Source of the DNA: Patescibacteria group bacterium
Lineage (GTDB): Bacteria; Patescibacteriota; Microgenomatia; UBA1400; MFAQ01
Length of the DNA stretch: 64,000 nucleotides
Reading direction: 5' to 3'
Assembly (NCBI GenBank): GCA_943355005.1
Contig: CALRDV010000002.1
Location: 131,826-195,825 of the forward strand
The position numbers and the translations under genes were made by a program. Below are positions 3,332 to 61,947 of the stretch, in pieces (the stretch's first letter is position 1; every line of letters begins with the position of its first letter). The notes under the pieces are model-generated. The model was not told where the DNA came from and ran no database searches. It saw only the letters and a program-made list of their open reading frames with translations.

Positions 3332-3931
3332 ATGACCGAAAAACTCAAAGGCATCGCCGGTTCGATGTTTGCAGGCAAAACAGAAATGTTACTCAAAGAA
3401 ATTTCCCGTGCTGAGTATGCCGGAAAAAAAGTCCAAGTTTTTAAGCCCGCCATCGATACTCGCTGGGAAGCGGGCAGTATCTCCTCTCATTCCGGCGGCA
3501 GTCACGAAGCCACCCCGGTCAATAATTCCTACGAAATTATTGAATATTTAAATCCTGACACATATATGGTCGCTATCGACGAAATTCAATTTTTTGACGC
3601 CGGCATTATTGACGTAGTTCGCTTCCTTCTCGAAGAAGACATTAGGGTAATTTTTGCGGGATTATCACTGGACTTTAGAGCCGAACCATTTGGACCTATG
3701 CCGGAGCTCTTAGCTCTTTGCGACGATATAGATAGACCTACTGCCATATGCAATCAGAACATCGATGGACAAATCTGTGGTGAAGAAGCCACACGGACAC
3801 AAAGATTAATCAATGGCCGACCGGCCAACTACGACGACCCCATCGTCCTTATTGGTGCCTCACAAGAATATCAAGCCCGTTGCCCAAACCACCACAAAGT
3901 CCCCGGTAAACCTCAACCAAAGATAAAATAA
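3332..3931 (+). CDS. tdk: Thymidine kinase
   Basis: P-loop GSMFAGKTE, VAIDEIQFFD, and C-terminal Cys pairs (C..C ... C..H) matching the thymidine kinase zinc ribbon. Confidence 0.85.
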   Translation: MTEKLKGIAGSMFAGKTEMLLKEISRAEYAGKKVQVFKPAIDTRWEAGSISSHSGGSHEATPVNNSYEIIEYLNPDTYMVAIDEIQFFDAGIIDVVRFLLEEDIRVIFAGLSLDFRAEPFGPMPELLALCDDIDRPTAICNQNIDGQICGEEATRTQRLINGRPANYDDPIVLIGASQEYQARCPNHHKVPGKPQPKIK

Positions 3932-9329: not shown

Positions 9330-10085
9330 TCAAAGTAACTTAAATGAAAACTGTGCATCAGATATCACAGATTCGTTGTCCGGCCAAGTTACCATTGGAC
9401 CCGATGCAGTAGCCGCGTAACCATAACCTTTATTGACCGTAATTAAACTTCTACGCCTCATGTCGACCCCACCTACCACATAGTTTCCACCTATCAAATA
9501 ATAAGGTTGGCCTTTTAAGTAAAACAAAGAATCATTTTCAAATACAAAATCAGGAAAATCTTTTGATGTTTTATCTTTAATACTTTTAATTTGATCTGAC
9601 AAAGAACTCTCCTCAACGTTGCGTTTTTCCACAGTTAAGATTGTCGCATAATTAATATTTCCAATTGTTTTTGTAGTTGGATTCAGAAATATCACGATGG
9701 CTCCTGTTTTACCGGTTTCATCTAGCTGCCACCCTGACGGAGGAGTAATTTGAAAACCCTCTTTTTCATTTTTATAAATTCCTCCCCCAATTACACCACT
9801 TTCAGTTGATTGTGAATTGTTTAAGGTGACTACTTGGTTCTTGTTAGTACTAGTCTTTGTAGGCATCGTAATCTCTAGGTCAGGAGCCTCACCCGTCCCT
9901 CTTAGCATAACAATAATAATTAACAACACAACAGGACCAATCCCTAAATATACCAACCATCTCCATGGAATCTTTTTGGAAGGCACCTTTTCAGTTTCCG
10001 TATTCTTCTCTACAAATACCGGAATATCCACTAATACTTGCTGATTTTTTTCACCCTCTTTCTGAATTATATTTTCGAGCTCCAT
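9330..10085 (-). CDS. Hypothetical membrane-anchored protein
   Basis: 251 aa with an N-terminal TM helix (WRWLVYLGIGPVVLLIIIVML), then a Thr-rich linker and a globular domain. No motif recognised. Confidence 0.4.
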   Translation of the reverse strand: MELENIIQKEGEKNQQVLVDIPVFVEKNTETEKVPSKKIPWRWLVYLGIGPVVLLIIIVMLRGTGEAPDLEITMPTKTSTNKNQVVTLNNSQSTESGVIGGGIYKNEKEGFQITPPSGWQLDETGKTGAIVIFLNPTTKTIGNINYATILTVEKRNVEESSLSDQIKSIKDKTSKDFPDFVFENDSLFYLKGQPYYLIGGNYVVGGVDMRRRSLITVNKGYGYAATASGPMVTWPDNESVISDAQFSFKLL

Positions 10086-10127
10086 AACTTCAGTTTAAAC
10101 CATCTGGGCGGACCTGTCCGCCGGTAG

Positions 10128-10212
10128 GCGGAGGGGGCGGGATTCGAACCCGCGGTATCTTGCGATACGGAGGTTTAGTAAACCTCTGCACTCGACCACT
10201 ATGCGACCCCTC
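10128..10212 (-). tRNA. Type II (long variable arm) tRNA with atypical anticodon loop, reading ACU with a canonical 5-bp stem. Identity uncertain: Ser/Leu-like, or a pseudogene.
   Basis: The reverse complement is GGAGGGGTCGCATAGTGGTCGAGTGCAGAGGTTTACTAAACCTCCGTATCGCAAGATACCGCGGGTTCGAATCCCGCCCCCTCCG. Acceptor, D-arm, long variable arm and T-arm are good. The anticodon stem GAGGT/ACCTC encloses loop TTACTAA. Confidence 0.55.
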
Positions 10213-10217
10213 CACGG

Positions 10218-13256: not shown

Positions 13257-14170
13257 TCTAGTGCAATTTTTAAGTTTGCTAAATTTTCCTCCATTAAAGT
13301 TAAATAATTTTTCCCTTGCTTTGCATCATTATCACTTATTCCTTCAATCGGGTCTAATACTAAGGTTTTTGCCCCAATCTCTTCAGCTACTGTCTGAGCC
13401 AGCTTTGGACTTACCAATTTTTCAAAAAATATGTACTTCAGATTTTCTTTCTTCGCTAGATTAGAAATCTCTACAAGCTGTTTAGTAGATGGCTCCTCAT
13501 CCGGACTTATCCCGGATATCGAAATTTGTGTTAATCCGTACTCTCGTGTCAAATATCCAAACGCATCATGTGAAGTCACCACTTTGTGTTCCTTGCATTG
13601 CGACAATCCCACTTTAAAGTCCGCGGACAATTTATCCAACTTAGCCAAAATCACTGTTTGATTTTCCAGATAATATCTCGAATTTGATTCATCCATCCTA
13701 ATCAGCTCCATTGTTATCATTTCTACTTCTTTTTTAGCCAACTCTGGCGAAAGCCATACATGGGGATCATTATTCTCCATTAGTCCGGTAGCTAACTCAA
13801 CGACCTTAGCCCCGTCTTTTGCTATTTTTGTCGCCCAAGATTCAAAGCCACCACCATTTATAAAGACTAATTTGCTTTTTTGAATCTGCACCAAATCTCT
13901 GGCAGTCGGTTCGTAATCGTGTGGCTCAACTCCGGAAGGGGTAATGTTTATGACATTAACCTTATCTCCCCCAATTTCCTTGACAAAGAAATAAACCGGA
14001 TAAAACGAAGTCACCACTAACGGTTTTATTTCACTGTCATTGCGAGGCACTGAGTGCTGTGGCCCGCTGGTACCCGAAGGGGTGAATCCAGGATAAATAT
14101 CAATTAATCCCAAAACAGCTATCACAAAAATAAAAACCAATATTACCGTTAGAATCGTATTTCTCTTCAC
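13247..14170 (-). CDS. znuA: Metal ABC transporter substrate-binding protein (TroA/ZnuA, cluster 9 SBP). It carries an in-frame palindromic-repeat insertion after the signal anchor.
   Basis: An N-terminal signal anchor, a His/Asp-rich metal site (HDYEP, HVWLSPE) and the two-lobed SBP pattern. Residues TPSGTSGPQHSVPRNDSE are encoded by a copy of the dispersed repeat family, cattgcgag...ggcccgctggtacccgaaggggtgaatcc. Confidence 0.8.
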   Translation of the reverse strand: MKRNTILTVILVFIFVIAVLGLIDIYPGFTPSGTSGPQHSVPRNDSEIKPLVVTSFYPVYFFVKEIGGDKVNVINITPSGVEPHDYEPTARDLVQIQKSKLVFINGGGFESWATKIAKDGAKVVELATGLMENNDPHVWLSPELAKKEVEMITMELIRMDESNSRYYLENQTVILAKLDKLSADFKVGLSQCKEHKVVTSHDAFGYLTREYGLTQISISGISPDEEPSTKQLVEISNLAKKENLKYIFFEKLVSPKLAQTVAEEIGAKTLVLDPIEGISDNDAKQGKNYLTLMEENLANLKIALECR

Positions 14171-15585: not shown

Positions 15586-15694
15586 CACTCACCACCCAAC
15601 CACTGTCATTCCCGACCTGAGTGGGCCGCTGGTACCCGAAGGGGTAAATCCATAAAAGTTGACCTCTACGCTCATTCATGATATTATAAGACAT

Positions 15695-16109
15695 GGGGAC
15701 GACAGGATTCGATGGGATAGTACGTTTACAGTTGCAAGCCTCCTTTGGTAATAGGAGTCAAAAAGACCAAAAAATACTTGTCAATAAAGAAGACAAAATA
15801 CTTGGTTTCATCTCTAGTGGAGTTAAATCCCTTTTTGGTGAAGTCAAATCTTCCGCTCCCGTTTACGCTTTTGCCTAAATAGTAGCTTTGAAGACGTCTT
15901 GAGAGCCAGCGGATCCCGGGCTTCTCACAAGGCGAAAAAATACCGGATTGAATGCTTCAGGTTTGATTTAGGCCTGAGGACTAACTTTTCTAAATCGACC
16001 ATAAGGTGTTCTTGTTTGCCTGAAGCTTTATGGAAAATCGGCAAACTACGCTTGTAGACTCTGTAGGCTTAATATTTCAGACGAGAGTTCAATTCTCTCC
16101 GTCTCCACA
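15695..16109 (+). ncRNA. ssrA: tmRNA (SsrA), ~413 nt
   Basis: The 5' end GGGGACGACAGGATTCGATGGGA pairs with the 3' end CGTCTCC-A-CA to form a tRNA-like acceptor stem. The 3' T-arm is GAGAGTTCAATTCTCTC. The internal tag reading frame ends ...SSAPVYAFA followed by TAA TAG. It lies immediately downstream of smpB and is followed by a terminator hairpin. Confidence 0.8.
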
Positions 16110-18343: not shown

Positions 18344-19024
18344 TTATTCCTGATTATTTTGATCATCATGCTCTTCAATTAATTGTGAAATTACCGCCAC
18401 CACTTTGTCAGGGTAAGCTATAGACTCAAAAGTAAAAGCCGAAGATTCATCTCTCGCGTTCGGAACATTCTGTTTTGAGGCAGTTTCTACAATCACATCA
18501 CCGTAATTAAAGAAACTGGCAAGCATCCCTCTTTGAGAATAATTAACATCTTCAATTTTGTTCAGTTGACATACGTTGACATTTTTACTCAGTAGCCCCA
18601 CAAAATCAACATCTATTATTCTCTCATTTGTCACTATGTAAACATTGTAAAACCACATTAAAAAATTCTGCAGTCCGTAAAAAGCCAGAACCATATACCA
18701 AAGCATTGTCATACCAATCAGAGCATTTCCGTCCAACATTTTAATAAAAGGAAATTCTTTCCAAAACATCGGTATAAATAATGAAAAAGAAACTACTGTT
18801 ATCCACCCCAGATTCCTAATTATATGTTTCCTACCCAAAATTACGATTTTTTCATCTTCTTGTTGAGATTCAAACTTTGACCATTCAGGAATCGCCACCA
18901 AAGATCCCCACTGGCTACGAGGACATGATCCTAAAATCTTTTCCACATCATCAACCACATTCTCTGATTTCTTGGCTTTAAAAATCTCCGGCATACCTAA
19001 TTGTACCAAACACCACGTCGTCAT
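18344..19024 (-). CDS. YdbT/YdbS-like bacterial PH (bPH_2) domain membrane protein
   Basis: A two-TM hairpin (RNLGWITVVSFSLFIPMFW ... MLWYMVLAFYGL) followed by a domain containing IVTNERIIDVDF and ending GDVIVETAS, as in bPH_2. Confidence 0.55.
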   Translation of the reverse strand: MTTWCLVQLGMPEIFKAKKSENVVDDVEKILGSCPRSQWGSLVAIPEWSKFESQQEDEKIVILGRKHIIRNLGWITVVSFSLFIPMFWKEFPFIKMLDGNALIGMTMLWYMVLAFYGLQNFLMWFYNVYIVTNERIIDVDFVGLLSKNVNVCQLNKIEDVNYSQRGMLASFFNYGDVIVETASKQNVPNARDESSAFTFESIAYPDKVVAVISQLIEEHDDQNNQE

Positions 19025-19320
19025 TGCGAGACTCGACTTTAGGTCGGCCGTGGCAATCCCACACCACTGTCATTCCCGACCCGCTTCGCCATAGCTTCAG
19101 CGAGGCGAGCCTGAGTGGGCCGCTGGTACCCGAAGGGGGAAATCCCCCTCCACTCGTCATTGCGAGGAGTGAAACGACGTGGCAATCCCACACCACTGTC
19201 ATTCCCGACCTGATCGGGAATCTATATAGATAAATACCAATTTTTAACACCATGACTACTAGCACTTAGAGTTACGAGTGAGTACGGTTTTTGGCGGGCT
19301 TCGAAACGCGATAAAAAAAT
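19017..19320. repeat. Intergenic cluster of dispersed palindromic repeat elements (composite of at least four repeat types)
   Basis: Two copies of cgtcattgcgag-[hairpin]-gtggcaatccc, two copies of (cac)tgtcattcccgacc(tgatcgggaatc), one copy of gagtgggccgctggtacccgaagggggaaatcc, and one copy of agttacgagtgagtacggtttttggcgggcttcgaaac. The same units recur at more than 15 other places in the window. Confidence 0.8.
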
Positions 19321-22899: not shown

Positions 22900-22990
22900 A
22901 GCTGTACATAGGAGCCGAAGGGAATCCCGCTAATGCGGGACGAGATAGTTACGAGTGAGTACGGTTTTTGGCGGTCTTCGAACCAACAAG
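22900..22990. repeat. Dispersed repeat copy (agttacgagtgagtacggtttttggcggtcttcgaacc type plus flanking unit)
   Basis: Matches 19265-19315 at ~90% identity. Located between the uppS and polyprenyl synthetase genes. Confidence 0.6.
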
Positions 22991-24113: not shown

Positions 24114-24166
24114 AAATTAATAAGGATTACGTCATCCTCGACCTGATCGAGGATCCACAAATACAT

Positions 24167-38080: not shown

Positions 38081-39136
38081 ATGGCTATTCAACAGCATCC
38101 ACTACCACAGGACATTAGCTCCTATCGCTTCCGCCTAATTGGCGATATGACTATCAAGCAGTTTGCCTCTCTTGGCATCTGTATTGTTTTAGCCATTATT
38201 GCGTACAGTATGCCCCTCCCTTTCTTTTTTAAATACCCTTTAGCCTTTATGTTTATCGTACTAGGCGTAGGTATGGCTTTTGTCCCCGTTCAAGGACGTT
38301 CTCTGGATGTTTGGATTCTTGCTTTTATCCGTTCCATTTATTCTCCGACTCAATATACATGGAAACGTTCTGAAGAAACTGTTTCAAATGAAATGTCTAT
38401 GAAGAGTAATGGAGTGGGTACTCAAGCAGTTACAAACGCCAGAATCGAACTCACCCAAGCTCCCGCTTCAGTCCCCAATACTCCATCTGTCTCCATCACC
38501 CCTCCTGCATCAGAGCCAAAAACAGAAGAGAGACTCGAAATAACTCCTCCACCATCCGTCATTGCGAACCCGCCTTCAGAGGGTGTGGCAATCCAGGCTA
38601 CAAATCAAACCGAAGTCCCAGTTCCTGAATTAGGAAAAATTATAACTTCCTTAGCCCCAGTAATACCTACCGAGCCGGAAAAACCCACCCAACCAATAAC
38701 ACTTACTGTCATTCCGGGCTTGACCCGGAATCCATCTGGTACATCAGACGCCCAATCGACACCATCCGTCATTGCGAGAGACCTACCCGCTGTGGAAGGA
38801 GCACGGCAATCTAGTTTACCAGCCACCCCATCAACTAACCCTCCCCAGCAAACCCAGCTCCCCATCCCCTACACCCCCACTACCCCAAACACTCTCGTTG
38901 GACTTACGTTGTCTCCGGAAGGTAAAATTTTGGACGGGGTCATGGTAGAAATTCAGAGAAACGGTCTAACTTCCAGAGCCACCAAAAGTAACAAACTTGG
39001 CCAATTTATGTTCGCCAGACCTTTGGAAAATGGCTTGTATCAAATCCTCGCCGAAAAAGATTCTTTTACCTTTTCACCATACTCTTTAGATCTTACCGGC
39101 ACTATTATCCGACCTCTTAAAATCCAAGCACAATAA
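38081..39136 (+). CDS. PrgI/VirB3-like membrane protein with C-terminal carboxypeptidase-regulatory-like domain. It contains in-frame palindromic repeat insertions.
   Basis: The N-terminus (YRFRLIGDMTIKQFASLGICIVLAIIAYSMP ... AFMFIVLGVGMAFVP) has the two-TM PrgI-like pattern. The C-terminus (LTLSPEGKILDGVMVEIQRNGLTSRATKSNKLGQFMFARPLENGLYQILAEKDSFTF) resembles a CarboxypepD_reg beta-sandwich. The central Pro/Thr linker includes VIPGLTRNPSGTS and PSVIARDLP, which are encoded by copies of the dispersed repeats. Confidence 0.45.
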   Translation: MAIQQHPLPQDISSYRFRLIGDMTIKQFASLGICIVLAIIAYSMPLPFFFKYPLAFMFIVLGVGMAFVPVQGRSLDVWILAFIRSIYSPTQYTWKRSEETVSNEMSMKSNGVGTQAVTNARIELTQAPASVPNTPSVSITPPASEPKTEERLEITPPPSVIANPPSEGVAIQATNQTEVPVPELGKIITSLAPVIPTEPEKPTQPITLTVIPGLTRNPSGTSDAQSTPSVIARDLPAVEGARQSSLPATPSTNPPQQTQLPIPYTPTTPNTLVGLTLSPEGKILDGVMVEIQRNGLTSRATKSNKLGQFMFARPLENGLYQILAEKDSFTFSPYSLDLTGTIIRPLKIQAQ

Positions 39137-45767: not shown

Positions 45768-46880
45768 TTAAGTCTGTGTCCTCACCGGCATTACTACTTG
45801 TACCCAGCCATCATCATCTTCACGCTTAAACACACTTGGCTTCAATTCACCTTCCGTCTCCCAAACCACTCTCTCAGAATTATTCACCCCCAAGTAATCT
45901 AGCAAATACCTGGCGTTAAAAGCTACAGTTAATCCGTCGCCTTCAACTTCAGTTTCCAACTCTGTAGAATTACTACCTAGTTGACTACTTTCTGCCTTCA
46001 CAATTAGTTTTTCTTCATCAATAGACATTTTTACAATATTTGCATTATCCCGCGCAAACAAATTGGCCCTCTTGACCGCTTCCAATAGCTCTTCTCGGTT
46101 AAACACCGCCTTAGTTGAATAAGTATTCGGCATGATTTGTTGATAGGGTGGAAACTCCCCTGCAATCAGTCGAGATGAAACTTCCAAATCGGCAATAGTA
46201 AAAATTACTTGTTGGTTCTCTTTATCAAATTCAATTCCAAAACTATCCTCCCCTGTCTCGGCTAATACTTTTGAGATTTCTTGTAGAGATCTGGCCGGCA
46301 GAATAAATCTGGTATTTTTTTCTATCGTCGTTTTAACCACACTTAGTTTGTCTACACTAAGTCTGTATCCATCCGTCGCGGCCAAAATAGTTTTATTTTC
46401 ATCCAGTTCCCAAAGTACCCCAGTTAACACCGGTCTAGTATCATCTCTGGCAGCCGAAATACAAACTCTATCCATCTTCTGGCGAAATTCTCCACTCTTC
46501 AAAGTAATCTGTACTTTCTTGGCTCTAGGAATACTTGGATAGTCTTCCACACCTTGTCCTACCACTTCGGCATTGATTCCCTTAGCTGACACAGTCAATG
46601 TGTTTTTATCCGAAGAAAGAGTTACATTCCCGACAGGTAAACTGGAAACCAGTTCTCCAAAAAGTTTGGCTGGTACCACCATCTCACCCTCTTCGTCGAT
46701 CTTGGCCGGCAACTTCACCCAGAAACTTACTTCCAAGTCGGTCGAGACCAAGTTTACTTCATTTTTAGTTACTTTCAAAAGTACTCCTGAAAGAATCGGC
46801 AACTGAGGCCTTGCCCCAATTCCCCTATTTACGATTCCCAAATATTTCTTTAAATCTGTTGCTTGGACTGTTATCTTCAT
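45768..46880 (-). CDS. dnaN: DNA polymerase III beta subunit (sliding clamp)
   Basis: 370 aa: MKITVQATDLKKYLGIVNRGIGARPQLPILSGVLLKV, a three-domain clamp pattern. Confidence 0.9.
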   Translation of the reverse strand: MKITVQATDLKKYLGIVNRGIGARPQLPILSGVLLKVTKNEVNLVSTDLEVSFWVKLPAKIDEEGEMVVPAKLFGELVSSLPVGNVTLSSDKNTLTVSAKGINAEVVGQGVEDYPSIPRAKKVQITLKSGEFRQKMDRVCISAARDDTRPVLTGVLWELDENKTILAATDGYRLSVDKLSVVKTTIEKNTRFILPARSLQEISKVLAETGEDSFGIEFDKENQQVIFTIADLEVSSRLIAGEFPPYQQIMPNTYSTKAVFNREELLEAVKRANLFARDNANIVKMSIDEEKLIVKAESSQLGSNSTELETEVEGDGLTVAFNARYLLDYLGVNNSERVVWETEGELKPSVFKREDDDGWVQVVMPVRTQT

Positions 46881-46983
46881 TCTTTAAATATTGTATATGT
46901 ATTCTTTTAATTAAATGCTTCTTGTTTGCTTACTAATATATTATTTATCTTAAATAAATATAGTAGTTATTAGTAATAGGTGA

Positions 46984-47229
46984 CGTGGATAAGTGGAGAC
47001 TAGCTTCAGCACGTGCCTGTTTTTCGTGTTACTAAGTTTTTATCGACTCATACATCCATCCTTTTGTCTCTTTGTCTCAGAATCTACTCACAAAAATAAA
47101 CTAACAACTCTATATTCTTGTGGATTCTTTTCTGGATAACTTGGCGACTTGTCCACCTACTTTTAAAATTTTAAAGACTTCTGCACACTTTGAATAGATA
47201 TCCACAGCACGTGGATAACTTGTGGATAT
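46984..47229. promoter_or_regulatory. oriC-like DnaA-box cluster between dnaA and dnaN, with adjacent AT-rich unwinding region (~46881-46980)
   Basis: Matches to TTATCCACA or its complement: CGTGGATAA (~46984), TGTGGATTC (~47119), CTGGATAAC (~47132), TTGTCCACC (~47149), ATATCCACA (~47198), CGTGGATAA (~47210), TGTGGATAT (~47221). There is another box, CTATCCACA, at ~48672 upstream of dnaA. Confidence 0.65.
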
Positions 47230-48681
47230 TTACGTGTATAACGCTTGTTTTAGTGCATTAACTTTTCGCCTGATATCCACGTTTTCTTCTATCTGCACTT
47301 TCATTTTTTCGACCGCGTGCATTACTGTTGTATGATCTCTCCCGCCCATCAGTTCGGCAACTTCGGTCAAATTTAGGTCGAGGATATCTCTCAAGATATA
47401 CATCGTAATGTGTCTAGCTACCACCAAGTCCGCTTTTCTACTGGTACCCAAAAGATCTTTATTTCGGAAATCAAAGTATTTGGCGACGGTAGAAATTACT
47501 TTGAGTGGTCTGACTTTAATATCCTTCACTGTGCTTGATGGTAGTCCTAGGTTCTTCTGTACCATTTCTTTGGTCAGCACTACCCCGTCCAAGTTTGCTG
47601 TTGCCGCCAACTGTCCAAAAGTTCCCTCCAGTTCTCTGGCATTCGTAGGGAAGCTGGTAGCCATAAGCTCAAACGCGCCATCGTCAACATCCACTTTAAG
47701 ATCAAGTGCTCTCTGTTTGAGTATTGCGAGTCTCATTTCATAATCAGGTAAGCCAATATCCACCATCATTCCTCCGAGGAATCTACTACGGAGCCTTGCT
47801 TCCAATCCCACAATCTCTTGGGGCTTGCGATCGCTCGTCATAATTATTTGTACTTGCCTATTCGTCAATTCATTGAAAGTGTGGAAGAACTCTTCTTGTG
47901 TTGAATCTTTTCCTCCAAAAAACTGTACATCGTCGACGAGAAGAGCTCCCACTTGGCGATACTTCTTCTTAAAAGCGTCAACAAGTTTAGATTTAAAAGA
48001 ACCGACCAGGTCGTTGGTAAACTGTTCGCTGGTAATGCACATAATTTTTCCAACTCCTTTTTTGACCAGTTCGTGCCCTACTGCATGCATCAAGTGAGTC
48101 TTCCCTACTCCAACCCCTCCATATATAAATAGAGGATTATGTCTCGTCCCGGGGAAATCTACCACTGCCTTGCCGGCAGCGAAAGCCAACCTATTCGAAC
48201 TTCCGACCATATAAGATTCAAAGTGATATCTGGGATTAAGATTTGTGTTGGTAGACTTGCTATCTTCTTGTGGTGCGAAGAGACCGATGTTTGTCTCATT
48301 AGGTTTTGCGCTTTCAAAATCCTTTTTCGGGTATTTTGTCTCTTTGTTTTGCTCTATTACAAGCAGTGCAATGTCACATCTTTTTCCTGAAATTTTCTCA
48401 GCAGACTGCTTTATGATGCTGTAATACTTGGTTTCAACTGTGTGACTCAGAAATGCCGACGGAGTTACTAGTTCAAGGAGTAGTCTTTCTTCATCAATGG
48501 AAGTAATAGAACGTAAATAACAAGGCTTGATAAAGCCCGCAAAACTTGCCGGAGTCATAGATACACCAAGCTCTCCGCAAATACTATGCCATAATTTCTC
48601 ACTGTCCATACCGTCATTCTCAACACTTATCCACATTTTTACAACCCCCAATTTACCCAAAAAGACTACTACTATCCACAT
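47230..48681 (-). CDS. dnaA: Chromosomal replication initiator DnaA. The true start is probably the internal ATG at ~48609.
   Basis: AAA+ Walker A GGVGVGKTHLMHAVG, Walker B LLVDDVQF, and the C-terminal DNA-binding domain (ADLVVARHITMYILRDILDLNLTEVAELMGGRDHTTVMHAVEKM). The first 24 codons of the track ORF overlap a DnaA box. Confidence 0.9.
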   Translation of the reverse strand: MWIVVVFLGKLGVVKMWISVENDGMDSEKLWHSICGELGVSMTPASFAGFIKPCYLRSITSIDEERLLLELVTPSAFLSHTVETKYYSIIKQSAEKISGKRCDIALLVIEQNKETKYPKKDFESAKPNETNIGLFAPQEDSKSTNTNLNPRYHFESYMVGSSNRLAFAAGKAVVDFPGTRHNPLFIYGGVGVGKTHLMHAVGHELVKKGVGKIMCITSEQFTNDLVGSFKSKLVDAFKKKYRQVGALLVDDVQFFGGKDSTQEEFFHTFNELTNRQVQIIMTSDRKPQEIVGLEARLRSRFLGGMMVDIGLPDYEMRLAILKQRALDLKVDVDDGAFELMATSFPTNARELEGTFGQLAATANLDGVVLTKEMVQKNLGLPSSTVKDIKVRPLKVISTVAKYFDFRNKDLLGTSRKADLVVARHITMYILRDILDLNLTEVAELMGGRDHTTVMHAVEKMKVQIEENVDIRRKVNALKQALYT

Positions 48682-48755
48682 CAGTTCTCTTCCGTTGCTT
48701 TTCTAGGGTATAATACTAAACAGTCACGTGATTCTCACGCAACAAACAAAACCCT

Positions 48756-48893
48756 ATGCCAAAAAGAGTATACCAACCAAAAAAAGTCAAACGTATTAGA
48801 AAGCACGGTTTTCGTATCAAGATGGCCTCAGCTGGTGGTCGAAACGTAATCAAACGTCGCCGAGCCAAAGGTAGAACCAAGTTAGCCCTCTAA
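48756..48893 (+). CDS. rpmH: 50S ribosomal protein L34
   Basis: Hand translation gives [45 protein letters not shown], which matches the L34 consensus (...THGFRARM...GR.V...RR.KGR..L). The stop appears to overlap the rnpA ATG (TAATG). It is too short for the supplied ORF track. Coordinates are +/-1. Confidence 0.7.
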
Positions 48894-49240
48894 TGCCTCT
48901 TCCGGCCATAAACCGGCTTCCCCTTCGATTTGAAAGAGATCGCCTTACACGTGAGGGTCGTTCATTCCACACCCGTCACTTTACCCTCGTCACCGCACCC
49001 TTTGACTCGCCAGAGCTGAAAGCGACGGCGAGCCGCTTCTCCATCCTCCTCTCGAAAAAAACCGCCCGCCTAGCCGTCGACCGCAATCTCATTAAACGCC
49101 GTACCTCCGCCATCCTGGCCCAAATACTCCTCTCCTTCCCTCCGGCCGATTACCTAATCATCCCCAAACGCTCCGTTCTGGACACCCCCCTCCCCGAACT
49201 TCTCTCCGACCTCTCCACTGCCATCCCCAAACTCAGATAA
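48893..49240 (+). CDS. rnpA: Ribonuclease P protein component
   Basis: 115 aa, basic, with LLSKKTARLAVDRNLIKRR (the RnpA RNR-like motif). It is in the conserved rpmH-rnpA order. The gene is conspicuously GC-rich (~57%) relative to its surroundings. Confidence 0.8.
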   Translation: MPLPAINRLPLRFERDRLTREGRSFHTRHFTLVTAPFDSPELKATASRFSILLSKKTARLAVDRNLIKRRTSAILAQILLSFPPADYLIIPKRSVLDTPLPELLSDLSTAIPKLR

Positions 49241-49242
49241 TG

Positions 49243-49277
49243 TTGTCATTCCCGACCCGATCGGGAATCCATTCTCT
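49243..49277. repeat. Dispersed palindromic repeat copy (gtcattcccgacccgatcgggaatcc)
   Basis: Located immediately after the rnpA stop codon. Stem TTCCCGA/TCGGGAA. Confidence 0.7.
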
Positions 49278-49365
49278 CTATTCACCCCATAACTATACTT
49301 TTGCTTGATTTACAGCTACAATCCCCTCAGAAAGTATCCGCACGTTTAAAAAGGAGAAAAACCAA

Positions 49366-49887
49366 ATGTCCGACTCAAATTGGATTACTGACGCAATTGA
49401 AAAAGGAAAAAGCAAAAAGAATAAGTCCGACGAACTTAGAAAACAAATAGAAGTTCAAAAACAACTAGACAAAAAGAGAAAAATCGAAGAAAGTAAAACA
49501 CTATTTTGGATGGTCTGTGGAAAAAGTTATTCTGAAATAGAGAATCTATTGTCGAATAGGTCTGGGTTGAACATTACAACTTACCGTGGTGAAATTGTGA
49601 GTCATGTACATACACCTATAGTCACCTCATACTATGATGAAGTCCATGTCGACAATGAAGGAGGATCCGTTTACCAACATGCATGTACATATGGGGTAAC
49701 TTGGACAATTAACTTTCACGATAAACAGATGGAATTTTCTTTAGTTGTGAAAAGATACACAAATACTAAAATGGTATTATTTGTGATACCTTTTGAAGAA
49801 GTAAAATACACCCCATCTACAAACGTAGAAAAGGTTAAAAAAATGATCGAGGATTGGCTCATCGAGATTTATTCCGAACAAAAATAA
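49366..49887 (+). CDS. Hypothetical protein
   Basis: 173-aa ORF with a good RBS (AAAAAGGAGAAAAACCAAATG) and a rho-independent terminator just downstream (ACAGGGCCGAGACCCTGTTTTTTT). Confidence 0.5.
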   Translation: MSDSNWITDAIEKGKSKKNKSDELRKQIEVQKQLDKKRKIEESKTLFWMVCGKSYSEIENLLSNRSGLNITTYRGEIVSHVHTPIVTSYYDEVHVDNEGGSVYQHACTYGVTWTINFHDKQMEFSLVVKRYTNTKMVLFVIPFEEVKYTPSTNVEKVKKMIEDWLIEIYSEQK

Positions 49888-49944
49888 CCACCGAACAGGG
49901 CCGAGACCCTGTTTTTTTATACAAAAAAGCAGGGTCTCCCCTGC

Positions 49945-50280
49945 TTAAAATTCTAAATCAACAATTAATTTCTTATTCAAGATACTATTTGTTTTAACTT
50001 CAATATAAAGTTTTGCTCGGGCAATCTTAAGCTCAAAATCAAGCTGTGCAATCGACACTGCCATATCAACAATCTCTTGCGGTACATCTACTGTTCCTAG
50101 TAAAGCATAATCTTCTTGATCAAGATTAAAGCCGGTAAATGCGTAAACTTGCTTGTCGACGACATTGATACATAATCTACCCAGCTCCTCAATTATCAAC
50201 CTTCGCATTAATCTTCCTCCCCCGCGACCAAAGTCCAAAACACTATCCGGAACCCTCTGACTAATTAGTTTAGCTTTCAT
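49945..50280 (-). CDS. Hypothetical protein (111 aa)
   Basis: ORF with its own terminator hairpin on the minus strand (AAGCAGGGGAGACCCTGCTTTTTT). No motif recognised. Confidence 0.4.
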   Translation of the reverse strand: MKAKLISQRVPDSVLDFGRGGGRLMRRLIIEELGRLCINVVDKQVYAFTGFNLDQEDYALLGTVDVPQEIVDMAVSIAQLDFELKIARAKLYIEVKTNSILNKKLIVDLEF

Positions 50281-57946: not shown

Positions 57947-57995
57947 AACCGTCATTGCGAGGCTCGACTTTAGGTCGGCCGTGGCAATCCAGGGT
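57947..57995. repeat. Dispersed palindromic repeat copy (cgtcattgcgaggctcgactttaggtcggccgtggcaatcc)
   Basis: Near-identical to the copy at 19017-19062. It is followed by a bidirectional terminator hairpin (AACAGCCACT-TGA-GTGGCTGTTTTTTG) at ~58008-58035. Confidence 0.7.
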
Positions 57996-58073: not shown

Positions 58074-60221
58074 TTATTCTTTCGGCCAATTTGCGGATAT
58101 TAACAGCCCTTCCTGGGGGAACACTTCCTTCCACGCCGACTCTGTCACAAAAGGGACAAAAGGGTGAAGCATTATTAAGAAAGACTTGTAGCCGTTTTTA
58201 AGAAGTTCAAGTGATACTTTCCCAGATTTGCAATTCTCGATAGATTCATCACAGAACCAGTGCCAAAACTCATTATAAACAGACTCCGCTGCCAGACCTA
58301 CCTTGTTAGCTTCCAATAATCTAGTTAACTCCTTTTGAACCTCTTGTAGTTTAGTTTTAAAATTCTCATTGCCTTCTCCTGTAAATTCGTCATTGCGAGG
58401 AGCGGAGTGACGTGGCAATCTCACTCCATCCACAATTTCCTGACCTTCACTCTTGGAATCGCCTTCTCTAGGGGTTTCCATCTCTGTAATAAATCTTCCG
58501 GCGTTCCAGATTTTGTTTCCAAAATTTCTCATTCCTCGAACTTTATTTTCCCCTGTATTACTATCTTGCCCCGGAGTTGTGCTCATCACCAATGCCATTC
58601 GAAGCGAGTCGGCACCATATTTATCTGTAAGTTCAAGTGGGTTGATTACATTACCAATACTCTTGCTCATCTTTCTGCCTTGCTCGTCTCTCACCAATCC
58701 GTGCAAATAAACGCATTTGAAAGGAGACTTGCCTGTCATATATATTCCTAACAACATCATCCTCATTACCCAGAAGGGGAGAATATCATAAGCTGTCTCC
58801 ATGACGTCAGTGGGGTAGTATACGTCGAAGTCTCCTTGCTTACTTGTCTTGAGTGTCACCACTGGCCACTGTCCGGAAGAGAACCACGTGTCAAAAGTAT
58901 CTGTTTCTTGAGTGTATCCTTTGCCCGGGCTCATTTCACTCACCACAAATTCTGTTTTAGTCTCATCTTTGTACCAAACCGGCATTCTAATTCCCCATAC
59001 GATTTGTCTGCTTACATTCCAATCTCTAAGATTGCTCAACCAATGTCTTAAGATTTTGTCGTGCCCGGATCCCATAACTACGGACTCTTCGGTATCTAGA
59101 GATTTCAGGGCATTTTCAGCCAAGGTCTTAACCTTTATAAAGAATTGTTTCATTGGCAAAGGTTCAATTGTTCGATGACAGCGATAACAAGTGCCCACAC
59201 TGTGCGTATATGGCTTTGTCTCTATTAGAGCGCTGCCTAAGTCGGTAACTATCTTTTCTCTGGCTTCACTTACATTCATACCTTCATAAAGCCCTGCATT
59301 GGCCGTCATTTTCCCTTTTGTTCCAATTACCTGGTGATTCAAAACAATCTCATCCATATTCCAACCTTGTCGCACAGCCACATCCCAATCGTTCTGGTCG
59401 TGTGTTGGTGTAATTTTTACGGCTCCGGTGCCGAACTCCATATCCACCATTGCATCTCCGACAATAGGGATTTCCCTGCCCACCAGTGGTAGTGTTACTT
59501 TCTCCCCAATTAAATTTTTGTATCTTGGGTCTTCCGGATTTACAGCCACAGCCACATCTCCAAGCATTGTTTCAGGCCTTGTGGTGGCTACCGAGAGCTT
59601 TCCGTAATTAATCTTGTATATCTTATCTTCTCTCTCCTCGTGGTCCACCTCAAGTTCGGAATATGCCGTTCCACACTTCGTACAGAAATTTACCAGCCTG
59701 ACTCCACGATAGATCAATCCATCTTCATGCAGTTTTATAAAAGTCTTGGTTACTTCCTTTACAATTTCCGGGTCGAGCGTAAATTTGTATCTACTCCAAT
59801 CTGCACTGGCTCCCAATTTCTTCACTTGGTCGATAGCAACTCCGGAATTTTCGTGTACATAATCCCAAATCATTTTGTAGAGAGTGTCTCTGTCAAAATC
59901 AAATCTACTTTTTCCTTGCTTGGCTAATTTTTTCTCAAACACAAACTGAGTTTCAATCCCTGCATGATCTGTACCCGGCAGCCAAAGAACTGCTTCACCC
60001 TTCATCCTATGAAAGCGTACCAAGATGTCCTCTATAGTTACGAACATTGCATGACCAACGTGTAAGGGGTCATTCGCGTTAGGAGGAGGCATAATTACAG
60101 TAAATGGTTTTTGACCCGTTTTTTTTACATCATCTCCCGACGGTGGGGTAAAAGCTCCACTCTTTTCCCACTCAGCATAAATCTCTGCTTCGGTTTCTTT
60201 GTGCTCGTAATTTTTATTCAT
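58074..60221 (-). CDS. valS: Valyl-tRNA synthetase (short form) with an in-frame palindromic repeat insertion near the C-terminus
   Basis: PPPNANDPLHVGHAMFVTIEDILVRFHRMKGEAVLWLPGTDHAGIETQ (HIGH region, ValRS-like), and KMSKSIGNVI. The residues GVRLPRHSAPRNDEF near the C-terminus are encoded by a copy of cgtcattgcgaggagcggagtgacgtggcaatc (~58385-58430). Confidence 0.8.
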   Translation of the reverse strand: MNKNYEHKETEAEIYAEWEKSGAFTPPSGDDVKKTGQKPFTVIMPPPNANDPLHVGHAMFVTIEDILVRFHRMKGEAVLWLPGTDHAGIETQFVFEKKLAKQGKSRFDFDRDTLYKMIWDYVHENSGVAIDQVKKLGASADWSRYKFTLDPEIVKEVTKTFIKLHEDGLIYRGVRLVNFCTKCGTAYSELEVDHEEREDKIYKINYGKLSVATTRPETMLGDVAVAVNPEDPRYKNLIGEKVTLPLVGREIPIVGDAMVDMEFGTGAVKITPTHDQNDWDVAVRQGWNMDEIVLNHQVIGTKGKMTANAGLYEGMNVSEAREKIVTDLGSALIETKPYTHSVGTCYRCHRTIEPLPMKQFFIKVKTLAENALKSLDTEESVVMGSGHDKILRHWLSNLRDWNVSRQIVWGIRMPVWYKDETKTEFVVSEMSPGKGYTQETDTFDTWFSSGQWPVVTLKTSKQGDFDVYYPTDVMETAYDILPFWVMRMMLLGIYMTGKSPFKCVYLHGLVRDEQGRKMSKSIGNVINPLELTDKYGADSLRMALVMSTTPGQDSNTGENKVRGMRNFGNKIWNAGRFITEMETPREGDSKSEGQEIVDGVRLPRHSAPRNDEFTGEGNENFKTKLQEVQKELTRLLEANKVGLAAESVYNEFWHWFCDESIENCKSGKVSLELLKNGYKSFLIMLHPFVPFVTESAWKEVFPQEGLLISANWPKE

Positions 60222-60228
60222 ATTTATA

Positions 60229-60310
60229 TCGTCATTCCCGACCTGATCGGGAATCTATATAGATCGTCATTGCGAGTTTCGGTATTCCGAACCGCGGCAA
60301 TCCAGGTTAA
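60229..60310. repeat. Two adjacent dispersed palindromic repeat copies upstream of valS
   Basis: gtcattcccgacctgatcgggaatc followed by cgtcattgcgagtttcggtattccgaaccgcggcaatcc. A third copy is at ~60415-60450, and a perfect 12-bp inverted repeat (CCCTCGTCAATC...GATTGACGAGGG) is at ~60322-60362. Confidence 0.7.
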
Positions 60311-60557
60311 TAATTTAAAAAACCCTCGTCAATCTCCATTATAAAGGGGATTGACGAGGGCCAATTAGGCGGTACCACCTCGCATTATACTTAATTCGTT
60401 TGGGTTCTACTTCCATTGTCATTCCCGACCTGATCGGGAATCCATAAATAGTTTCCTCCCTAGCTCAGAGGTGACTAATCTCTTCATCGCTCTCTTGCTA
60501 ATTCTATCACAATCGAATAAAATAACCCATAGAGTTTGAACAAAAGGAGATATTAAT

Positions 60558-60849: not shown

Positions 60850-61947
60850 TTAAACCACTCCCAAACTAGGATCAGGCTTCAAATCCAACCCTGTTTCCTC
60901 AGGCCTTAGAATTGCCGCGGCCCCCACCATCGCCGCATTATCTCCACAATACTTCAGTTCAGGCACGAAGAAATTGATTCCATATTTTTCAACTTCATTT
61001 CTTAAAGCCTCTCTTAGTTTCTTGTTTGCCGCCACTCCTCCGGCGAGCAATACACTTCTTGGTTGATACTTCTCTACGGCGAGCATTGTCTTCTTTACTA
61101 GAACCTCGGTCACTGCCTCACTAAACTCCCTCGCCAACAGATTCCTTTTAAGTTCGTCATTCCGAGCGACCGGCACACCGTGACGGGAGTCGAGGAATCT
61201 CACTCCACCTTTTACGTCATTCCGGGCTTGACCCGGAATCCAGGTTTTAAAATCTTCACTCTCCACCATTCGAGCAATCGCCGCCTTAATTCCCGAAAAA
61301 CTCATATCCAAACGTGGGTCATGGATCAGTGGTCTTGGAAGTTTAAATACATTTTTATTTTTATTCCATTCTTCTTCAGTGATTTTACTCGCCGCCTTAT
61401 CCATCTCCGGCCCACCCGGATAGGGCAGACCCAGTATTCTGGCTGCTTTATCGTAAACCTCACCAGCAGCATCATCCCGAGTTCCCCCAATCCACGTCCA
61501 TTTTGTAAGGCTTTCCAAAAGAATCAAATCTGTGTGTCCACCACTTACCACAAGTCCCACCGCCGGCAATTCCGGCACATTATTCTCCCCAATCCAGTTC
61601 GCCAACACATGTGCAGTCATATGGTTTACTCTTAGCAGAGGTTTCTTCCATGACCAAGCCAAAACCTTTGCCGTCTCGACACCAATTAACAAACTTCCCA
61701 TCAAACCCGGACCATAACTCACCGCAACAGCATCTACTTCGGTGTCTACTAGGGCTTCGATAATTACGGGGATAATACTTCTGATTTGCTCACGTGCCGC
61801 CACTTCAGGTACGATTCCACCATATTTCTGATGCATTTCCATTGAACTGGCCACGATATTCTTAATTACTCTCACTCCATCACCAAAATTCTCCACTACA
61901 GCCGCAGCAGTTTCATCACAGGTACTTTCAATAGCCAAAACTTTCAT
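60850..61947 (-). CDS. tsaD: tRNA N6-adenosine threonylcarbamoyltransferase TsaD (Kae1/YgjD family) with an in-frame ~30-aa palindromic repeat insertion
   Basis: MKVLAIESTCDETAAAVV ... GGHT ... and the C-terminal GGVAANKKLRE. Residues IPGQARNDVKGGVRFLDSRHGVPVARNDE are encoded by tandem repeat copies at ~61150-61255 (gtcattccgagcgaccggcacaccgtgacgggagtcgaggaatc + gtcattccgggcttgacccggaatcc). Confidence 0.85.
   Translation of the reverse strand: MKVLAIESTCDETAAAVVENFGDGVRVIKNIVASSMEMHQKYGGIVPEVAAREQIRSIIPVIIEALVDTEVDAVAVSYGPGLMGSLLIGVETAKVLAWSWKKPLLRVNHMTAHVLANWIGENNVPELPAVGLVVSGGHTDLILLESLTKWTWIGGTRDDAAGEVYDKAARILGLPYPGGPEMDKAASKITEEEWNKNKNVFKLPRPLIHDPRLDMSFSGIKAAIARMVESEDFKTWIPGQARNDVKGGVRFLDSRHGVPVARNDELKRNLLAREFSEAVTEVLVKKTMLAVEKYQPRSVLLAGGVAANKKLREALRNEVEKYGINFFVPELKYCGDNAAMVGAAAILRPEETGLDLKPDPSLGVV

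Follow-up and report, generated by a model that had tools for sequence, protein, structure and literature searches.

Oriented hairpin repeats inserted in frame in tsaD of a Patescibacteria bacterium are probably members or close variants of the Ssn-linked NTS class

Introduction

The gene tsaD is normally essential and encodes TsaD, the tRNA t6A37 threonylcarbamoyltransferase, and the locus described here raises the question of how repetitive DNA came to lie within its reading frame and what kind of element this DNA represents. The gene is found in a 64,000-nucleotide stretch of contig CALRDV010000002.1 (hereafter the window) from a tiny bacterium, of a groundwater type, in the candidate phyla radiation (CPR)/Patescibacteria lineage. 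An original prediction, made from the sequence of the window, had proposed that a palindromic repeat is inserted in frame in tsaD and is translated as a surface insertion, in the manner of Rickettsia palindromic elements (RPEs). The analysis supports this reading. The insertion itself, the empty sites in relatives and the preservation of the frame are directly observed, and the segment is probably a passenger made up of two dispersed, oriented hairpin units which reside in a permissive loop of TsaD, are tolerated there, and belong to the class formed by the NTS hairpins of Neisseria and the Ssn-related motifs (SRM) or vary closely on it. This resemblance to a pan-bacterial family of hairpins had escaped the original prediction, as had three other host genes in the window.

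The insert in tsaD and its two units

The features of the gene that the argument requires are the following.

60850-61947, minus strand: tsaD, 365 aa, host of the insert (open reading frame, Pfam PF00814, PDB TsaD matches, AlphaFold2 model)
61156-61245, minus strand: in-frame insert of 90 nt, residues 235-264, TWIPGQARNDVKGGVRFLDSRHGVPVARND, measured against the empty orthologous allele; absent in relative L122 and shorter in relative L121
61156-61200, plus strand: unit 1, GTCATTCCGAGC...GTCGAGGAATCT, with a 5-bp outer stem, a 21-nt interior and then the tail CACTCCA (from sequence; weak fold)
61216-61241, plus strand: unit 2, perfect 26-nt hairpin GTC ATTCCGGG CTTGA CCCGGAAT CC (from its fold and exact copies elsewhere)

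The open reading frame is otherwise canonical, as had been claimed. Its translation includes ESTCDETAAAVV, SFSGIKAAI, IPGQARNDVKGGVRFLDSRHGVPVARNDE, LKRNLLAREF and GGVAANKKLRE, with the insert located between SFSGIKAAI and LKRNLLAREF; Pfam PF00814 (TsaD) spans residues 27-342 (E=2e-78), solved TsaD chains match at E about 4e-67 in a PDB sequence search, and the nearest public TsaD sequences, which are 335-376 aa long, are named Candidatus Collierbacteria. Alignment to T. maritima TsaD (6nak_B) splits into query residues 1-231 and 271-363 against chain residues 1-223 and 231-326, which suggests that the window protein has roughly 30 extra residues relative to this chain. In an alignment of 34 close Collierbacteria-type TsaD sequences and the window protein (35 sequences), the invariant and catalytic residues are all retained, H109, H113 and D336 being among the invariant columns. 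An AlphaFold2 model made from the same alignment has a mean predicted local distance difference test score (pLDDT) of 80.9, and pLDDT falls below 50 at residues 238-261, between the helices 218-229 and 262-294, while the remainder of the model superposes on YgjD/TsaD crystal structures with template modelling scores of 0.85-0.88 (Foldseek). Family match over the full length, conserved residues and fold thus all identify the protein as a TsaD, and since the model has low confidence at the insert and agrees with known structures elsewhere, the insert appears to behave as a disordered loop at a position whose length varies across the family. This is in agreement with the proposed surface insertion of about 30 residues. 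The insert is exactly 90 nt, that is 30 codons without a stop codon, and the reading frame is kept, so that no disruption of the gene is seen. Its GC content is 0.59, against 0.46 in the remainder of the gene and 0.41 in the window.

Both DNA strings on which the original prediction was built are present as quoted, the first, gtcattccgagcgaccggcacaccgtgacgggagtcgaggaatc, at 61156-61199 and the second, gtcattccgggcttgacccggaatcc, at 61216-61241, both on the plus strand; the end of unit 1 is set at 61200 to take in the last T of its GGAATCT tail. The two units are however not tandem repeats of one unit, as had been assumed, but belong to different subfamilies of one superfamily, which have only the head GTCATTCC and the tail GGAATC in common and lie 15 nt apart. 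Their supposed palindromic nature is likewise true of unit 2, which folds into an 8-bp stem (-8.5 kcal/mol, z = -4.9), but not of unit 1 (z = -0.5), whose interior measures 21 nt as compared with 3 nt in the relatives L124 (GTCATTCCGAGC-ACA-GTCGAGGAATCT) and L129 (GTCATTCCGAGC-GGA-GTCGAGGAATCT). Unit 2 is identical to two further copies 7 and 22 kb away, the 27-mer GTCATTCCGGGCTTGACCCGGAATCCA being repeated exactly in the window at 38708, 54252 and 61216.

The tsaD site in relatives

Read from the alignment of 35 sequences, the site is found in three states.

Empty site: 14 sequences, for example ARMVEVQK-ELDEK in P0012 (335 aa, 80% identical)
Hairpin-derived peptide (WIPDQVGND and variants): about 12 sequences, three of which, the window protein included, have a second unit ending ARNDE
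Unrelated short insert NRSQ..SQIS: 9 sequences, the DNA of which contains no hairpin of this family

An equivalent segment is accordingly not universal, and the empty sites that the original prediction had suggested looking for are found in 14 of the 34 close TsaD sequences. The DNA of the insert site was read for five relatives. It is empty in L122, holds a single perfect unit, GTCATTCCCGACCTGATCGGGAATCC, in L121, a fully compensated variant, GTCATCCCGGACTAGATCCGGGATCC, in L125, and a long unit together with the short-interior unit mentioned above in L124, and in L129 it carries a decayed copy in which pairing is lost and the frame is still intact. The occurrence of different compensated subfamilies at one and the same site implies either repeated insertion or overwriting of resident copies from other copies. 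A second site of variable length follows ANWI (window residues about 118-124; alignment columns 120-160); here L129 (10001-11119) has a perfect unit in another frame, RFPIRSGMT, other relatives have a GVRLPR..PRNDD unit or low-complexity inserts rich in K, T and Q, and the window protein has none.

Relative L122 is devoid of units across 17 kb of conserved gene order, where the insert of valS (see below) is also absent, and its valS-tsaD spacer is 28 bp, as opposed to 628 bp with three units in the window. The abundance of units in the window is thus a lineage-specific expansion. It should also be mentioned that in P0049, an identical TsaD from an independent assembly, the sequence ends at residue 217, about 50 nt short of the insert, and that the repeat therefore does break assemblies.

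The unit family across the window

The window contains 19 units of 26-77 nt (697 nt in total) of the form GTC-hairpin-C, a number that leaves out a chance match at a start codon (26421) and includes the compensated variant found at 24131. The head GTCATTCC occurs 11 times where 2.07 occurrences are expected, a count reached in 0/100 shuffles, and GTCATTGC occurs 8 times; all occurrences of both are on the plus strand. Every unit is preceded by C or T, starts with GTCAT and ends with ATC(C/T), and the interiors consist of an 8-bp stem and a 5-nt loop in eight units and of longer, nested arrangements in the rest. The 26-nt units have 8-bp stems of -7.6 to -8.5 kcal/mol with z between -3.5 and -4.9, and no Rfam family covers the units. 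In addition to the two units of tsaD they are located as follows.

58377-58448, minus strand: in-frame insert of 72 nt in valS, residues 592-615, EGQEIVDGVRLPRHSAPRNDEFTG, around the unit 58389-58421 (plus strand), measured against the empty allele
14036-14092, minus strand: unit read in frame in the linker between signal anchor and ZnuA domain, residues 27-45 (Pfam ZnuA match from residue 52)
38558-38812, plus strand: three sense-orientation units (38558-38594, 38708-38733 and 38768-38812) in the C-terminal extension of a PrgI-family protein (38081-39136)
19020-19223, plus strand: intergenic cluster of four units (19020-19059, 19069-19145, 19156-19188 and 19198-19223)
60231-60443, plus strand: three intergenic units in the valS-tsaD spacer (60231-60256, 60266-60303 and 60418-60443)
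15605-15651, plus strand: intergenic unit directly upstream of the gene for transfer-messenger RNA (tmRNA)
24131-24156, plus strand: intergenic unit, the fully compensated stem variant GTCATCCTCGACCTGATCGAGGATCC
49245-49270, plus strand: unit 5 nt past the rnpA stop codon
54252-54277, plus strand: unit 19 nt past the stop codon of an RNase H gene, identical to unit 2 of tsaD
57951-57990, plus strand: unit 7 nt past the stop codon of the L25 gene, 98% identical to the unit at 19020

Seven of the 19 units (37%) are thus intragenic and in frame, namely two in tsaD, one in valS, one in the znuA linker and three in the PrgI-like gene. Neither L122, whose ValRS is 77% identical, nor L125 has the 24-residue insert of valS. 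In each orientation one of the three frames contains a stop codon, GGAATGAC being read as GAA TGA and CCGACCTGA as ACC TGA, and the units are read in at least four frames and in both orientations (WIPGQARND, RFPIRSGMT, VIPGLTRNP and others). Two identical 34-nt copies, including the tail TATATAGAT, are found at 19198 and 60231; the unit at 60231-60256 ends 10 nt upstream of the valS start, and in the mRNA its 3' arm, GGGAAUGAC, sits where a ribosome-binding site would be expected.

All 19 units are on the plus strand (two-sided binomial p 4e-6), and the neighbouring genes are on both strands. The plus strand of the units is also the C-rich strand, with a GC skew of -0.19 throughout the window where genes point both ways, and in the syntenic relatives L121, L124, L125 and L129 the equivalent strand holds 18 units and the opposite strand 1. 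The orientation of units bears no relation to local GC skew in 120 diverse loci (54 vs 68) or in other CPR loci (15 vs 21). Uniform orientation, as seen in the window, is not a universal rule.

Spread across bacteria and constraint on the hairpin

A scan of one genome per species for GTCATTCCSGRCYYGAYCSGGAATC gave at least 120 loci, which among the matches listed belong to Bacteroidota, Chloroflexota, Campylobacterota, Nitrospirota, Pseudomonadota (including Rickettsiales), several CPR groups and others, and 25-mers identical to unit 2 are found in dozens of bacterial phyla and in phage contigs. An identical hairpin is in frame in five confirmed genes of other phyla, and translated insertions of the hairpin would therefore extend beyond the lineage of the window. 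These genes are the following.

L038, 4928-7501: HrpB helicase
L010, 4547-7075: MutS2
L060, 628-2649: DnaG primase
L002, 2385-4007: SpoIID
L039, 90-1220: radical-SAM enzyme

No gene family is common to the neighbourhoods of the 120 hairpin-bearing loci in an all-against-all BLAST comparison, as is expected of solo copies. Several contigs classified as phage (L150 + L178, which is IMGVR_UViG_3300003667_000196; L143; L170 + L176; L144; L162) carry very dense same-strand arrays of the 26-nt hairpin; at least 25 units are present in a 16-kb phage contig whose gene set is Mu-like, and the strand counts of other phage contigs are 15:0, 13:0, 6:0 and 5:0. In the phage contigs a second repeat often alternates with the hairpins, whose sequence forms part of small translated open reading frames.

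The variation among copies gives an indication of what is conserved. A total of 115 distinct sequences combine GTC with a layout of 8+5+8, the loop C[CT][CT][GA]A and a 3' C, and in 56 of them 7 or 8 pairs are complementary, as opposed to 0.2% of the occurrences of the same layout with other flanks. Among 58 distinct 25-mer variants all 8 stem pairs show two-sided changes (90 such cells vs 22 in shuffles), and no variation is seen in GTC, at two of the loop positions or in the 3' C; 97% of the stem cells pair, a figure which is inflated by the filter of at least 6 pairs, whereas the double changes are not. Since both arms change together at all eight pairs while GTC, the loop letters and the 3' C do not change, the constrained feature is a hairpin whose single-stranded flanks are fixed, as would be the case for the target of a structure-specific DNA-binding protein.

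Relation to NTS, SRM and the Ssn nucleases

A full-text search with the head of the repeat gave one relevant paper, which describes the Neisseria NTS, CGTCATTCCCGCGMAVGCGGGAATCYRG (PMC11893778, Nat Commun 2025). The 94-aa GIY-YIG protein SsnA binds and cuts the NTS only as single-stranded DNA, the three letters (GTC) preceding the palindrome on its 5' side are important for cleavage and the C that directly follows it for binding, and NTS-like SRM flank ssn genes in many phyla (PMC11893778). The tsaD unit with its flanks, CGTCATTCCGGGCTTGACCCGGAATCCAGG, agrees with the NTS in the first nine and the last nine of 28 letters and differs in inner stem and loop, the NTS having a 9-bp stem and a 3-nt loop and the window unit 8 bp and 5 nt. 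More generally, both NTS/SRM and the window units are oriented hairpins of 20-50 nt with (C/T)GTCAT... at the 5' side and ...ATC(C/T) at the 3' side, and both are multi-copy, clustered and distributed over many phyla. The 20-50 nt inverted repeat by which SRM are defined is found in unit 2 and the other 26-nt units and only weakly in unit 1, and the flanks characteristic of SRM, (not G)GTC directly before the palindrome and C directly after it, are found in 19/19 window units. The systems differ in that 2% of NTS copies are intragenic in N. meningitidis (PMC11893778), as compared with the 37% intragenic, in-frame units of the window, and in that all 19 window units are co-oriented and have a CPR host, a group which the main text of PMC11893778 does not mention.

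The Collierbacteria relative L124 has, at position 9914, GTCATTCCCGTGAAGGCGGGAATCC, which is one mismatch from the NTS core, and exact NTS copies occur alongside the window variant in 4 of the loci read. Furthermore, a phmmer search across the 120 hairpin loci found two GIY-YIG open reading frames, and both are bracketed by hairpins: the gene of L040 (Flavobacteriales) is intact and lies between two copies, inverted relative to each other, of exactly the tsaD-type unit, and that of L106 (Dehalococcoidaceae), which has an in-frame stop, lies between a window-type unit on one side and a canonical NTS core on the other. Within CPR, the loci L126 (Doudnabacteria) and L128 (Kerfeldbacteria) likewise have a hairpin-bracketed GIY-YIG gene, GTCATCCAGGGCTTGACCCGGGATCC being located 20 nt upstream of that of L126. 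The flanked proteins, which are GIY-YIG proteins by Pfam scan and candidate members of the single-domain cd10448 type to which ssn belongs, are about 95-129 aa long (97 and 96 aa in the two CPR loci), which is near the 94 aa of SsnA. Among the matches listed (P0121-P0240), homologues of the Ssn type are 65-77% identical across unrelated phyla, including proteins of Candidatus Kerfeldbacteria and Doudnabacteria. Contigs of less than 2 kb hold very many of the Ssn-type proteins among these matches, which is to be expected of a mobile cassette that is multi-copy or varies between strains. It is thus most likely that the window units belong to, or closely vary on, the NTS/SRM class of Ssn-linked hairpins, and GTCATTCCGGGCTTGACCCGGAATCC in single-stranded form may be a target of CPR Ssn proteins such as P0162 or P0139.

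Several observations nonetheless weigh against this reading. Neither the NTS pattern, with up to 3 mismatches, nor the published degenerate expression for SRM has a match in the window, and the proposed membership therefore rests on the flanks and on the linkage to Ssn genes. Searches by regular expression, by phmmer seeded with GIY-YIG sequences and with two authentic Ssn-type proteins, and through the strongest Pfam families listed for 70 window open reading frames revealed neither a GIY-YIG gene nor a transposase gene, whether in the window or across the roughly 120 kb of Collierbacteria loci syntenic with it. As a hairpin unit 1 is poor and folds no better than shuffles, and the translation of the insert is deduced from preservation of the frame rather than from peptides. 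Finally, mobility of NTS/SRM has so far been demonstrated by no one and is offered only as a hypothesis (PMC11893778).

Alternative explanations

Other accounts of the repeats themselves deserve consideration. The units could be real dispersed repeats which here have nothing to do with Ssn, maintained or spread by another protein or process or acting in RNA as 3'-end stabilisers or leader structures, with the copies in tsaD as by-products. Such a role would agree with the absence of an Ssn gene from roughly 180 kb of Collierbacteria DNA, with the failure of the published SRM pattern to match, and with the position of four units within 5-20 nt of plus-strand stop codons and of one 10 nt before the valS start. 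We nevertheless regard it as unlikely, since the units retain unchanged those non-palindromic letters on which Ssn depends (5' GTC and 3' C), and since Ssn-type genes bracketed by the same variants are found in four genomes, including two of CPR bacteria; moreover, all units lie on one strand regardless of the direction of the neighbouring gene, and the form that a unit takes in RNA therefore differs from gene to gene. A comparison with repetitive extragenic palindromic (REP) sequences and the bacterial interspersed mosaic elements (BIMEs) that they form is also natural. REPs have the head GT[AG]G followed by an imperfect palindrome and are by definition extragenic, and they share with the window units the short hairpins with an asymmetric, oriented 5' head, the mixed clusters (as at 19020-19223), the presumed handling as single strands, to which the strictly uniform orientation would be suited, and the small nuclease gene flanked by its own repeats. 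Mobilisation by a REP-associated tyrosine transposase (RAYT), an IS200/IS605-like Y1 enzyme, is however very unlikely: the head is GTCA and not GT[AG]G in 19/19 units, the gene found between such hairpins encodes a GIY-YIG nuclease and not an HUH Y1 protein, and no Y1 transposase, repeat-flanked or otherwise, is among the listed Pfam matches (strongest families) of the 70 window open reading frames.

The remaining alternatives concern the segment within tsaD. That it is a functional loop typical of the lineage, maintained by selection on the protein and only secondarily resembling a repeat, might be argued from the many relatives having some insert here and from the recurrence of a flanking (D/E)(E/D)F..W motif, but 14/34 close orthologues do without it, unit 2 matches intergenic copies, as well as copies from other phyla, letter for letter in its DNA, and the peptide varies freely, the hairpin being decayed in L129 and the loop predicted to be disordered, all of which makes this explanation very unlikely indeed. 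One may also imagine that the 90 nt are never translated and are either cut out of the RNA or skipped by the ribosome in the manner of the 'byp' elements known from yeast mitochondria, as a stable hairpin is predicted in the mRNA. A bypassed element would however have no need to keep a frame. Translation is indicated by the fact that seven intragenic units in the window and five in other phyla are free of stop codons, by the divisibility by three of the inserts measured against an empty allele (90 nt in tsaD, 72 nt in valS), and by the L129 copy, which has lost the hairpin and stays in frame, and the bypass explanation is in consequence hardly credible. An assembly artefact, in which a misjoin induced by the repeat placed repeat sequence inside tsaD, has next to no probability. 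The end of the independent P0049 assembly just before the insert could point that way, but independent assemblies of at least eleven related genomes have hairpin-derived, frame-intact inserts at the same codon position, and the TsaD sequence is collinear on either side of the insert.

Two further families of repeats invite comparison. The dRS3 element of Neisseria, ATTCCC-N8-GGGAAT, is a phage integration target, and the palindromic core of several window units, for example ATTCCCGA-CCTGA-TCGGGAAT, is similar to it; the spacing in the window is however N9 and not N8, the oriented flanks are those of the NTS, and phage integration is nowhere evident. The parallel with Rickettsia drawn by the original prediction is a fair analogy, in that selfish palindromic DNA is found in frame in unrelated housekeeping genes and adds a peptide compatible with the fold (PMC10969869), as is seen here in tsaD, valS, znuA, the PrgI-like gene and the five genes of other phyla. 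RPEs are however about 150 bp long, encode a conserved peptide and are confined to Rickettsia, where nearly half of 44 copies are fused in frame (PMC10969869), whereas the window units are 26-77 nt and pan-bacterial, use several frames in either orientation, and owe their identity to a DNA hairpin and not to a peptide; by description they are thus set apart from the RPE family. In Candidatus Rickettsia vulgarisii (L098, about 3650-3840) a window-type hairpin lies within a larger palindrome of roughly 150 bp, the outer arms of which start GTCAT, and this nested arrangement raises the question whether the RPEs of Rickettsia are composites of such units.

A possible mechanism and its implications

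Taking the units to be passengers of the NTS/SRM class or a close variant of it, their history may be imagined as follows. Hairpins of the NTS/SRM type would be bound and cut as single-stranded DNA by a GIY-YIG Ssn protein, whose gene they flank like the ends of a tiny mobile element, and they would spread by way of an Ssn-dependent cut in DNA that is single-stranded, whether at replication forks or on entering the cell, followed by copy-in repair templated by another copy of the unit. This supposes that the lineage has, or recently had, an Ssn gene of its own. Since one frame per orientation contains a stop codon, insertions in that frame would be purged by selection, and the survivors would be confined to one of the two stop-free frames per orientation and to loops and linkers, which in a genome with very short intergenic regions are presumably the only places where they can accumulate. 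In tsaD the units would then be transcribed and translated as a disordered loop of 30 residues that TsaD tolerates.

A bolder version of the same idea would have the GTC-hairpin-C units be active mobile elements that move through single-stranded DNA by means of a GIY-YIG (Ssn-type) nuclease in a strand-specific process, routinely colonising the loops of essential CPR proteins and hitting the same sites again. A strand-specific process would explain why the 19 window units and the phage arrays are on one strand, and if the idea were true the units would be a steady source of new protein loop sequence. The GIY-YIG nucleases are not an enzyme class known to drive transposition. We hold this version to be unlikely. 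The locus does in any case supply natural material bearing on the question of mobility, in the form of empty, filled, re-filled and decayed orthologous sites, co-oriented copies and hairpin-ssn-hairpin cassettes in CPR.

Translated selfish palindromes have so far been deemed a speciality of Rickettsia, and here the same outcome would arise from a different, pan-bacterial family of hairpins. The host is a CPR bacterium that has hardly any DNA to spare, and among the genes affected are tsaD and valS, both of them central. Work on the Ssn/NTS system has up to now concerned its modulation of transformation in Neisseria, and the system would here be tied to the evolution of protein-coding sequence. 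The units would also explain peptide motifs that recur in protein databases (WIPGQARND, VIPGLTRNP, RFPIRSGMT and GVRLPR..ARNDE) and the breaks of metagenome-assembly contigs inside genes. The literature searched contains nothing on these hairpins in CPR, on the share that is in frame, on the reuse of protein loops or on strict co-orientation, and searches for hairpins in coding regions or for follow-ups on Ssn gave only the original Ssn paper and the work on RPEs.

Other features of the window

Some features of the window bear on neither tsaD nor its insert and are listed here.

45768-50000: canonical origin-like neighbourhood, with dnaN and dnaA on the minus strand and rpmH (about 48756-48890), rnpA, yidD, yidC and jag on the plus strand
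48627 and 48672: DnaA-box matches
24167-45720: type IV secretion-like cluster with nine small open reading frames of the T4SS-pilin family, the PrgI-family protein that hosts three of the units, TraG/VirB4-like P-loop ATPases and an M23 peptidase
10127-10213, minus strand: tRNA-Ser with anticodon ACT (ARAGORN; Rfam confirms a tRNA), beside three other tRNA-Ser genes
15695-16108, plus strand: tmRNA gene (Rfam 111 bits)
19270-19305 and 22947-22982: 36-nt repeat, 97% identical

The GC skew is negative on both sides of the origin-like neighbourhood, and either the origin is therefore located elsewhere or skew is not set by replication here. The anticodon ACT in a tRNA-Ser is unusual for bacteria. 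The tmRNA gene has an unusually long predicted tag peptide of 32 residues and is found directly downstream of smpB and of the unit at 15605-15651. The two copies of the 36-nt repeat are located just 3' of two minus-strand genes and are unrelated to the hairpin family.

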